Shown here: piece by piece, positions 2,834 through 62,785 of the stretch
Position numbering within the stretch: position 1 is the first letter of the stretch
Layout: every line of letters starts with the position of its first letter
Assembly: GCF_003790525.1 (NCBI RefSeq)
Contig: NZ_CP033635.1
Strand: one strand, 5' to 3'
Origin: Escherichia coli
GTDB taxonomy: Bacteria; Pseudomonadota; Gammaproteobacteria; Enterobacterales; Enterobacteriaceae
DNA: 64,000 nucleotides
Position numbers and translations under genes: made by a program
Notes under the pieces: generated by a model
What the model was told of the DNA's origin: nothing
Database searches by the model: none
What the model saw: the letters and a program-made list of their open reading frames with translations, nothing else

Positions 2834-3523
2834 ATGAAAAAAATTATCGCATTGATGTTGTTTTTGACATTCTTTGCCCACGCGAACGACTCCGAGCCTG
2901 GCAGCCAGTATTTAAAGGCAGCAGAGGCTGGGGACCGACGCGCACAATATTTTCTTGCCGACAGCTGGTTTAGCTCCGGCGATTTGAGCAAAGCCGAATA
3001 TTGGGCACAGAAAGCCGCCGACAGCGGTGATGCTGATGCCTGCGCGCTGTTAGCGCAGATCAAAATCACCAATCCGGTCAGTCTGGACTATCCACAAGCA
3101 AAAGTTCTTGCAGAGAAAGCGGCGCAAGCGGGCAGTAAAGAAGGTGAAGTAACGCTGGCGCATATTCTGGTAAATACGCAAGCGGGTAAACCGGATTATC
3201 CAAAGGCGATTTCGCTGTTAGAAAACGCCTCGGAAGATCTGGAGAACGACTCTGCCGTCGATGCCCAAATGCTGCTTGGTTTGATTTACGCCAACGGCGT
3301 GGGCATTAAGGCCGACGATGACAAGGCAACCTGGTATTTCAAACGCAGCTCTGCGATTTCCCGAACCGGTTATTCCGAGTACTGGGCGGGAATGATGTTC
3401 TTAAACGGTGAAGAAGGTTTTATCGAGAAGAACAAACAGAAGGCGCTGCACTGGTTGAATCTGAGCTGTATGGAAGGGTTTGATACCGGGTGTGAAGAGT
3501 TTGAAAAATTAACTAACGGTTAA
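2834..3523 (+). CDS. yjcO: Sel1/TPR-like repeat periplasmic protein
   Basis: 229 aa ORF with signal peptide and repeated Sel1-like A-x-A-Q/YxLA motifs; position between fdhF and gltP. Confidence 0.85.
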   Translation: MKKIIALMLFLTFFAHANDSEPGSQYLKAAEAGDRRAQYFLADSWFSSGDLSKAEYWAQKAADSGDADACALLAQIKITNPVSLDYPQAKVLAEKAAQAGSKEGEVTLAHILVNTQAGKPDYPKAISLLENASEDLENDSAVDAQMLLGLIYANGVGIKADDDKATWYFKRSSAISRTGYSEYWAGMMFLNGEEGFIEKNKQKALHWLNLSCMEGFDTGCEEFEKLTNG

Positions 3524-3675
3524 TGTAGGCCTGATAAGACGCGTTAATCGTCGCATCAGGCGTTGATGTCGGATGCGGCGTAAACGCCTTATCCGACCTA
3601 CAAAATCACGCTAAATCAGGCTATTGCGCTGTCTGACGTAGGCCTGATAAGACGCGGCAAGCGTCGCATCAGGCA
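3524..3675. repeat. REP/BIME cluster (palindromic units)
   Basis: Repeated GTAGGCCTGATAAGACGCG...CGCATCAGGC and GCCGGATGCGGCGTAAACGCCTTATCCG units in inverted orientation. Confidence 0.85.
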
Positions 3676-14103: not shown

Positions 14104-14222
14104 TTGCCGGATGCGATCCGGGCAACAAGTCGGAAACGATTTGTAGGCCTGATAAGACGCGACAGCGTCGCATCAGGCATTGATTGCCGGATGCGGCATA
14201 TAACGCCTTATCCAGCCTACAT
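14104..14222. repeat. REP/BIME cluster
   Basis: GCCGGATGCG... and GTAGGCCTGATAAGACGCG...CGCATCAGGC units between acs and yjcH. Confidence 0.85.
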
Positions 14223-19911: not shown

Positions 19912-20052
19912 ATCAACACCAACCGGAACCTCCACCACGTGCTCGAATGAGGTGTGTTGACGTCGGGGGAAACCCTCCTGTGTACCAGCGGGATAGAGAG
20001 AAAGACAAAGACCGGAAAACAAACTAAAGCGCCCTTGTGGCGCTTTAGTTTT
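19912..20052 (+). ncRNA. sraL: Small RNA SraL (RyjA), convergent with and overlapping the 3' end of soxR
   Basis: Intergenic ghxP-soxR region ending in hairpin AAAGCGCCCttgtGGCGCTTT plus T-run on the + strand; sequence matches my recollection of SraL; 5' end approximate. Confidence 0.5.
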
Positions 20053-60258: not shown

Positions 60259-60568
60259 AACAATTTCCCTTCATTGAATGAATGGAGATTTACCCAAAAA
60301 CATTTCGGGCGGGATCGAGTATACACAACTAAAGCATGCGAATTACGGCGCGGGTAATTAGTGATGGGGTTTTAGGATAATTGGAATGAATATCAAATAT
60401 AAGCTTCAGATTATATATAAATAACACTAAAAATCATAAGCTTAAAATAAAAATAAAAGTAATTAATCTGCGTATTTTCCGAAATCAATCACGATTAAAA
60501 ATCTATTTTAGGATTAACCTCACGGTATGATTTCCGTTAAATCACAGACAAGGGGATTTATCTGATAA

Positions 60569-60600
60569 AAAATGCCGACATAACGTCGGCATTTTTATTA
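60569..60600. terminator. Bidirectional terminator downstream of pgi
   Basis: AAAAAATGCCGACataaCGTCGGCATTTTTATT. Confidence 0.8.
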
Positions 60601-60611
60601 GGGTTATTTAA

Positions 60612-62261
60612 TTAACCGCGCCACGCTTTATAGCGGTTAATCAGACCATTGGTCGAGCTATCGTGGCTGCTGATTTCTTTGTCATCTTTCAGCTCTGGCA
60701 GAATACGGTTCGCCAGTTGTTTACCCAGCTCCACGCCCCACTGGTCGAAGGTGAAGATGTTCAGGATCACGCCCTGAGTAAAGATTTTGTGCTCATACAG
60801 CGCAATCAACGCACCCAGGCTGAACGGAGTGATTTCACGCAGCAGGATGGAGTTGGTCGGGCGGTTACCTTCGAACACTTTGAACGGCACCACGTAGTCA
60901 AGCGTTGCCGGATCTTTACCCTGATCGCGATATTCCTGCTCAACCACTTCGCGGGATTTACCAAACGCCAGCGCTTCGGTCTGAGCGAAGAAGTTAGACA
61001 GCAGTTTCTGGTGATGATCAGAGAGCGGGTTATGGGTGATAGCCGGAGCGATGAAATCGCACGGTACCATTTTGGTTCCCTGGTGGATCAGCTGGTAGAA
61101 CGCGTGCTGACCGTTAGTACCTGGTTCACCCCAGATAATCGGGCCAGTCTGGTAATCCACAACGTTACCGTTACGGTCAACATACTTACCGTTGGACTCC
61201 ATATTGCCCTGCTGGAAGTACGCCGCGAAACGGTGCATATACTGGTCATACGGCAGAATCGCTTCAGTTTCCGCACCAAAGAAATTGTTGTACCAGATGC
61301 CAATCAGCGCCAGCAAGACAGGCAGGTTTTTCTCGGCAGGCGTGGTGGAGAAATGCTTGTCCATCGCGTGTGCGCCAGAAAGCAGTTCAACGAAGTTATC
61401 AAAGCCGATGGAGAGAACAATCGACAGGCCAATCGCTGACCACAAAGAGTAACGACCGCCGACCCAGTCCCAGAATTCGAACATGTTGGCAGTATCAATA
61501 CCAAACTCGCCAACGGCTTTGGCATTGGTGGAAAGCGCCGCAAAGTGTTTCGCAACGTGTTTCTCATCACCTGCCGCTTTCAGGAACCAGTCACGCGCGC
61601 TATGGGCGTTGGTCATGGTTTCCTGAGTGGTGAAGGTTTTAGATGCTACCAGGAACAGCGTGGTTTCCGGGTTTACTTTTTTCAGCACTTCCGCGATGTG
61701 AGTCCCATCGACGTTAGAAACAAAGTGCATGTTCAGGTGGTTTTTGTACGGACGCAGTGCTTCGGTCACCATGTACGGGCCGAGGTCAGAACCACCGATC
61801 CCGATGTTCACTACGTCAGTGATTGCTTTGCCGGTATAGCCTTTCCACTCACCGGAAATAATCGCTTCCGAGAAGGTTTTCATCTTCTCCAGCACCGCGT
61901 TGACTTCCGGCATAACATCTTTGCCATCAACCAGAATCGGGGTATTGCTACGGTTACGCAGCGCTACGTGCAGTACGGCGCGGTTTTCAGTGCGGTTGAT
62001 CTTCTCGCCAGAGAACATCGACTTAATCGCGCCCGCCAGATCGCACTCTTTCGCCAGATCTTGTAATTTCGCCAGCGTCTCTTCAGTGATGCGGTTTTTG
62101 GAGTAATCCACCAGCATCTGATCGTCGAAGGTTACGGAGAACTTAGAAAAACGATCGCCGTCTTTAGCAAAAAGATCGGCGATCGTAACGTCTTTCATTT
62201 CATCGAAGTGTTTCTGTAGTGCCTGCCAGGCAGCGGTCTGCGTTGGATTGATGTTTTTCAT
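60612..62261 (-). CDS. pgi: Glucose-6-phosphate isomerase
   Basis: 549 aa from [15 protein letters not shown]; PGI family signatures. Confidence 0.96.
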
Positions 62262-62504
62262 TAGCAATACTCTTCTGATTTTGAGAATTGTGACTTTGGA
62301 AGATTGTAGCGCCAGTCACAGAAAAATGTGATGGTTTTAGTGCCGTTAGCGTAATGTTGAGTGTAAACCCTTAGCGCAGTGAAGCATTTATTAGCTGAAC
62401 TACTGACCGCCAGGAGTGGATGAAAAATCCGCATGACCCCATCGTTGACAACCGCCCCGCTCACCCTTTATTTATAAATGTACTACCTGCGCTAGCGCAG
62501 GCCA

Positions 62505-62700
62505 GAAGAGGCGCGTTGCCCAAGTAACGGTGTTGGAGGAGCCAGTCCTGTGATAACACCTGAGGGGGTGCATCGCCGAGGTGATTGAACGGCTGGCCAC
62601 GTTCATCATCGGCTACAGGGGCTGAATCCCCTGGGTTGTCACCAGAAGCGTTCGCAGTCGGGCGTTTCGCAAGTGGTGGAGCACTTCTGGGTGAAAATAG
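62505..62700 (+). ncRNA. Lysine riboswitch (L-box) in the lysC leader
   Basis: Long structured 5' leader (about 320 nt) upstream of lysC containing AGAGGCGC...TTGCC...GGAGGAGCCAG L-box-like core; aptamer boundaries approximate. Confidence 0.65.
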
Positions 62701-62785
62701 TAGCGAAGTATCGCTCTGCGCCCACCCGTCTTCCGCTCTTCCCTTGTGCCAAGGCTGAAAATGGATCCCCTGACACGAGGTAGTT

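Follow-up and report, generated by a model that had tools for sequence, protein, structure and literature searches.

The DNA between pgi and lysC in this Escherichia coli window (the whole stretch of 64,000 nt that was analysed) carries the E. coli lysine riboswitch. With a probability of about 97%, we assign positions 62480-62785 to a 306-nt lysC mRNA leader in which this riboswitch acts by the mechanism set out below. An Rfam scan of the whole window returned a match to the Lysine family (RF00168) at 62498-62694 on the + strand, spanning the full model (positions 1-182 of 182) with a score of 99.5 bits against a gathering score of 30 (E = 3e-25). The match lies 91 nt upstream of the ATG of lysC, which is likewise on the + strand and serves lysine biosynthesis. 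An initial annotation, made from the letters alone, had read the long structured lysC leader as a lysine riboswitch and had named a search with the RF00168 covariance model as the way to check it. The search returned a match far above threshold and bears that reading out, showing that an L box can be recognised by a reader from the raw sequence alone.

This element has already been described in full detail: it is the one characterised in E. coli K-12 MG1655. The pgi-lysC spacer (524 nt, 62262-62785) is identical to MG1655 at 524/524 positions, and the first 134 nt of lysC contain one synonymous-region difference (62884, A versus G). It is therefore base for base the spacer of the K-12 lysC riboswitch (Caron et al. 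2012, as represented in PMC10946432), whose transcription start numbering, RNase E Site1, rut site and termination sites all map here, with no difference within the leader. The published experiments used MG1655 and demonstrated lysine-dependent control of lysC by the leader (PMC10946432). All but one of 5426 complete E. coli genomes (5425) contain the same spacer, with at least 99% identity in 5420, and the automatic RefSeq annotations under the match read ‘riboswitch’ and ‘lysC: lysine-sensitive aspartokinase 3’. The metabolite-sensing control of aspartokinase III that the initial annotation had proposed is thus backed by an MG1655-identical sequence, by published lysine control and by the RefSeq riboswitch feature. 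The window itself adds no new information on one of the best-characterised riboswitches of E. coli.

Leader layout and the lysine aptamer

The promoter, leader and aptamer features, together with the start of the gene, are as follows.

62445-62474, + strand: lysC sigma-70 promoter, read from the sequence
62480, + strand: lysC transcription start (+1, G), inferred from the published numbering
62486-62501, + strand: 5′ hairpin CCUGCG/CGCAGG directly upstream of P1, present in all constrained and free folds
62498-62694, + strand: lysine riboswitch aptamer, a five-helix junction (P1-P5), from RF00168 and covariation
62502-62508, + strand: P1 5′ strand CCAGAAG, from the Rfam structure line and the P1-forced fold; 100% paired in six species
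62541-62546, + strand: L2 loop GCCAGU, complementary to L3 (kissing loop)
62592-62597, + strand: L3 loop GCUGGC, complementary to L2
62684-62690, + strand: P1 3′ strand CUUCUGG, from the Rfam structure line, folds and alignment; overlaps the ON-helix 5′ strand
62786-64000, + strand: coding sequence of lysC (aspartokinase III), truncated where the window ends; RefSeq annotation, and homologues with Pfam AA_kinase and ACT domains
G62788, + strand: published pause and Rho termination site G309 (PMC10946432)

The lysC ATG occupies 62786-62788, where RefSeq likewise places the start of lysC in an identical E. coli genome; pgi lies on the opposite strand with its start codon ending at 62261. Because the G of the lysC AUG is numbered G309 by Ghosh et al. 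2024 (PMC10946432), +1 is placed at G62480 and the leader measures 306 nt. With this offset, the Rho termination sites reported in the same study, G349, U354-357 and A364, fall on G62828, TTTT 62833-36 and A62843, all of them the right bases, and the published numbering matches the correct base at five separate positions overall. The initial annotation was therefore right to describe a long leader, but its estimate of about 320 nt was too great, and position 62465, taken there as the edge of the pgi promoter region, falls within the lysC promoter.

That promoter consists of a −35 element TTGACA (62445-50), an 18-nt spacer and a −10 element TATTTA (62469-74), and all 11 relatives examined retain the TTGACA-N18-TATTTA block. 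Where it lies with respect to the published +1 suggests that it serves as the lysC promoter. Having A as the sixth base of its −10 hexamer, it escaped detection by a consensus promoter scanner. Downstream of +1, the 5′ hairpin takes a longer form with changed bases in Scandinavium and in a JGI contig. The hairpin is set apart from P1 by additional DNA in E. albertii and Cronobacter: approximately 85 nt in the former (about 823-908; aptamer 99 bits) and approximately 200 nt in the latter (about 690-897; aptamer 83 bits), in both cases between the promoter with its 5′ hairpin and P1. The Cronobacter insert contains ...AATCCCCAGGAGC...GTGACTGGGGTGAGCG... and presumably resembles an ERIC repeat.

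The orientation of the locus bears on a transcriptome study of Klebsiella, which assigns a lysine riboswitch to pgi (KPHS_02470; PMC10949472). This is likely a nearest-gene error, since the riboswitch here faces lysC and pgi lies on the opposite strand. Elsewhere in the window, Rfam matches on the + strand comprise the sRNA sraL (19912-20052, 153 bits), a SECIS_2 selenocysteine insertion element (1005-1059, 87 bits) and STnc430 between yjbE and pgi (60455-60603, 84.5 bits). Three repeat-derived naRNA4 elements also score above threshold on the − strand (48622-48692, 14146-14217 and 3528-3598).

For comparative analysis, a LysC homologue search, a 90% identity cluster and contig look-ups yielded the lysC loci of eleven Enterobacteriaceae (protein identity 88-99%). 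The same E. coli LysC 90% cluster holds truncated members of 308-309 aa that are named ‘zeta toxin (family protein)’ in NCBI, probably a naming error. A 714-aa ENA protein that fuses LysC to PF17862 and PF01434 is probably an assembly or gene-calling chimera. A contig pattern scan, AGAGGCGCN{55,80}CGCCGAGG, with 16 fixed bases and a wide gap, gave mostly chance matches in GC-rich genomes among the matches listed, and none was used.

Five of the eleven relatives have an RF00168 match upstream of lysC (83-99 bits), and these five together with the window form the six-species aptamer alignment, from which one Scandinavium insertion was taken out. When the Rfam structure (six helix segments, 51 pairs) is laid on this alignment, 91.7% of cells are standard pairs, compared with 40-48% in a slid control in which the 3′ partners were moved by 1-3 columns. 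Compensatory changes, affecting both sides of the pair, occur in nine aptamer pairs. Neither value was reached in any of 500 shuffles. P1 and P5 themselves are nearly invariant. The junction nucleotides AGAGGNGC, GCCGA, UGUCA and GGAG are all found in the Rfam alignment and do not vary among the six species. The predicted L2-L3 kissing contact keeps its four core pairs in five of the six species but not its outer two, a comparison that draws on few sequences; its one compensation is at the pair 62541-62597, where G-C becomes A-U in two species.

The E. coli aptamer shares with the RF00168 family (L box or LYS element) the five-helix architecture and the core strings AGAGGCGC, CGCCGAGG, UGUCAC and GGAGCAC. 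It differs from the model in an 18-nt insertion in the P5 loop, which folds as an extended P5 hairpin. The initial annotation had quoted three L-box-like strings, AGAGGCGC (62507), GGAGGAGCCAG (62535) and GGTGATTGAACGG (62580). All three are located where it had put them, yet just one, AGAGGCGC, is a signature of the whole family (Rfam consensus AGAGGuGC). The P2 loop is represented by GGAGGAGCCAG, which holds the L2 kissing bases, and GGTGATTGAACGG makes up the 5′ strand of P3, a strand that differs from species to species and covaries. It had also pointed to multiple complementary G/C-rich segments and suggested secondary-structure prediction. The structure is real, but free-energy folding beats shuffled sequences just mildly (z = −2.1), so it is the covariance model and covariation, rather than G/C-rich complementarity, that carry the case.

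Expression platform and mode of control

Downstream of the junction, the following elements make up the expression platform.

62669-62693, + strand: ON-helix 5′ side (GCAAG, GGAGC, UGGGUG), from the free minimum-energy fold and the P1-forbidden fold
62710-62745 (about +231 to +265), + strand: C-rich, G-poor tract, the predicted rut (Rho loading) site, from the composition profile and the published rut site at approximately +240
62723-62747, + strand: ON-helix 3′ side (CACCCG, GCUCU, CUUGU), from folds and alignment
62729-62732, + strand: RNase E cleavage Site1 UCUU (+250 to +253), from PMC10946432, mapped with +1 = 62480
62742-62748, + strand: OFF-helix 5′ strand CCUUGUG, which by its sequence forms an uninterrupted run of seven pairs with 62774-62780
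62774-62780, + strand: OFF-helix 3′ strand CACGAGG, containing the Shine-Dalgarno (SD) GAGG (62777-80), from folds and conservation

Folding resolves this region into three mutually exclusive pairings: P1, an anti-P1/antisequester (ON) helix and an SD-sequestering (OFF) helix. The existence, exclusivity and conservation of these helices are shown by the present analysis, as are the aptamer and its covariation. The ON helix is long and interrupted (62669-73/62743-47, 62678-82/62735-39 and 62688-93/62723-28) and forms in the minimum-energy fold obtained without constraints. Because it uses the 3′ strand of P1, we equate it with the published anti-P1/antisequester stem (PMC10946432). By the same overlap with the ON-helix 5′ strand (62688-62693), the P1 3′ strand is the switching sequence, and the exclusivity of ON and OFF follows from 62743-62747, which are common to the ON-helix 3′ side and the OFF 5′ strand.

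Across the six species, 98.9% of ON-helix cells are pairable, with one-sided changes only and none compensatory. The OFF helix reaches a pairing probability of approximately 0.35 when P1 is forced and is invariant in the six aptamer-containing species; it also dominates the folds of leaders that lack the aptamer, and CCTGACACGAGGT is invariant in 12/12 species. Neither helix shows covariation, since both are too conserved, and the comparison is compatible with the ON and OFF helices without proving them. Drift of the ON-helix partner strand in the aptamer-less species would have supported the ON helix, but none is clearly seen: GCUCU becomes GUUCU or GUUUU, which can still pair, and four of five columns are invariant. 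This comparison is not counted as evidence.

No other part of the leader is as rich in C and as poor in G as the C-rich tract, which peaks at 56% C and 12% G (62720-44) and lies close to the published rut site at approximately +240 (= 62719; PMC10946432). Both the predicted rut tract and Site1 lie in the strand that the ON helix hides. Thermodynamic folding by itself fails to recover a difference between the two states at the SD: the predicted unpaired probability is similar with P1 forced (0.12) and with P1 forbidden (0.15), because both ensembles are dominated by a spurious pairing of the SD with the 5′ end. This 5′ end-SD helix (ACUACCU 62482-88/AGGUAGU 62778-84, a perfect 7 nt) is broken in five of the six aptamer-containing species and was judged a chance complementarity. 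The P1-forced fold is approximately 12 kcal/mol less stable than the free fold in an energy model that omits ligand binding and tertiary contacts.

In two genomes, insertions interrupt the region downstream of the aptamer. In the blood isolate E. coli EECO1006 (locus 2944-3641), an IS1 lies directly after the aptamer, at approximately 62692-62694 of the window, and splits it from the expression platform and lysC, making this a natural uncoupling mutant. In Scandinavium, a 133-nt insertion (1052-1184) separates the platform from the SD. With its inverted ends (CTTAAGAC/GTCTTAAG) and near-duplicated flank (CCTGGCTCC / CCAGGCTCC), it looks like a miniature transposable element.

Taken with the published work, these elements give the following mode of action. 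When lysine is absent, the 3′ part of the aptamer (62669-93) would pair with the C-rich segment 62723-47, leaving the SD free and burying the RNase E and Rho loading sites, so that lysC would be translated. Lysine would bind the aptamer (62498-62694), the five-helix junction of which is closed by P1 (62502-08/62684-90); P1 would then keep its own 3′ strand and 62723-48 would be released. CCUUGUG (62742-48) could now pair with CACGAGG (62774-80) and block ribosome binding. The exposed C-rich tract would be cut by RNase E at Site1 (62729-32) and would load Rho, with the help of NusG, leading to termination at G62788 and at points deeper in lysC. Of these steps, ligand binding by the aptamer, the repression of translation, the RNase E cut and Rho-dependent termination are taken here from published experiments on the identical sequence. 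In purified in-vitro transcription, 1 mM lysine alters Rho/NusG termination, and this termination needs both Rho and NusG (PMC10946432). More than one conformation of the lysC riboswitch has been detected by in-vivo DMS ensemble mapping (PMC13271884), and a covariation study of whole lysine riboswitches describes an aptamer-platform overlap that matches the E. coli translational variant (PMC13273304). The thiC and ribB riboswitches of E. coli share the principle that a rut site inside the riboswitch is exposed in the ligand-bound fold, with termination at or near the start codon, and differ from lysC in their ligands and aptamers. The half-life of the lysC pause at G309 is ligand-independent, whereas the thiC pause is ligand-dependent.

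The L box of Bacillus subtilis lysC has the same aptamer class, likewise targets an aspartokinase and is likewise an OFF switch; its platform is an intrinsic terminator. That such a terminator forms in the E. coli leader is scarcely credible. The common aptamer class would fit, and the lysine-riboswitch covariation models in the literature derive mostly from terminator-type examples (PMC13273304), but no terminator-like G+C-rich hairpin followed by a T run was found on the + strand of 62480-62785, the platform ends in an SD-pairing helix, and the Rho and NusG dependence in vitro is not that of an intrinsic terminator. E. coli lysC thus differs from the B. subtilis switch in having no intrinsic terminator and in an output made up of SD sequestration, RNase E and Rho.

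We also consider it very unlikely that the switch is purely translational, with the drop in mRNA a passive result of its being untranslated and no direct control of access for RNase E or Rho. Such a scheme would accord with the SD-sequestering helix being the most conserved part of the platform and with its survival of aptamer loss, by which it may be the core output. However, deletion of Site1 leads to more RNA polymerase occupancy early in the lysC ORF (PMC10946432), an effect that speaks for direct access control. The C-rich tract, moreover, sits exactly in the strand hidden by the ON helix. Enteric amino-acid biosynthetic operons often use leader peptides, and a 57-codon ORF is present on the + strand at 62585-62758; it contains no lysine codon, however, and falls within the aptamer. 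A chance resemblance to an L box is excluded by the E value of 3e-25 together with the nine pairs that carry compensatory changes. We therefore give a negligible probability to leader-peptide attenuation or chance structure, and the lysine riboswitch with joint control of ribosome, RNase E and Rho access is the explanation that we retain.

Relatives that lack the aptamer

The remaining six of the eleven relatives, namely Salmonella enterica, Citrobacter amalonaticus, C. braakii, Enterobacter asburiae, [Enterobacter] lignolyticus and Trabulsiella odontotermitis, have no RF00168 match anywhere in the lysC locus. For the Salmonella locus, nothing relevant appeared in the Rfam scan even at E values up to 10. 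The aptamer-containing class comprises Escherichia, Kluyvera, Cronobacter and Scandinavium, and Klebsiella appears to belong to it as well, given the lysine riboswitch reported next to pgi (PMC10949472). The absence from Salmonella is implicit in databases, as an Rfam-derived review table lists the lysine class for Shigella and not for Salmonellae (PMC7824784). In the literature searched, we found no description of the aptamer-less junction or of the retained platform.

The aptamer-less leaders, of which that of Salmonella is 85 nt long, measure 78-86 nt (about 1115-1200 in each locus, corresponding approximately to window 62487-62721). In each, the conserved promoter and approximately 8 nt of transcript run into CTGCGCC...CCUUGUGCC...CCUGACACGAGGU, so that the promoter, a C/U-rich tract, CCUUGUG and the invariant CCUGACACGAGGU are retained. 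The missing block amounts to approximately 229 nt of E. coli sequence, from 62487/93 to 62715/21, and is bracketed exactly in E. coli by a direct repeat of CTGCGC (62487-62492 and 62716-62721, 229 nt apart). This arrangement is compatible with a repeat-mediated deletion of the aptamer block, although a 6-nt repeat could also be a product of chance. The short leaders fold as a hairpin around the SD and AUG, with two compensated pairs and a negligible covariation term. A conserved leader peptide was considered for these leaders and rejected, an ATG being present in only three of the six.

In a neighbour-joining lysC tree, which has short internal branches, taxa without the aptamer are interleaved with those that carry it, and the bipartition by aptamer presence or absence was recovered in 0/100 bootstraps. 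It is possible, though we regard it as doubtful, that the lysC leader of Enterobacteriaceae exists as two allele classes whose interleaving reflects repeated loss or lateral exchange, and that the surviving platform is a lysine-independent or differently controlled translational/Rho element. Relatives that have lost the aptamer and kept the platform represent a natural deletion experiment on the platform parts that work without ligand sensing, and they could show how a riboswitch is lost or exchanged among closely related genomes.
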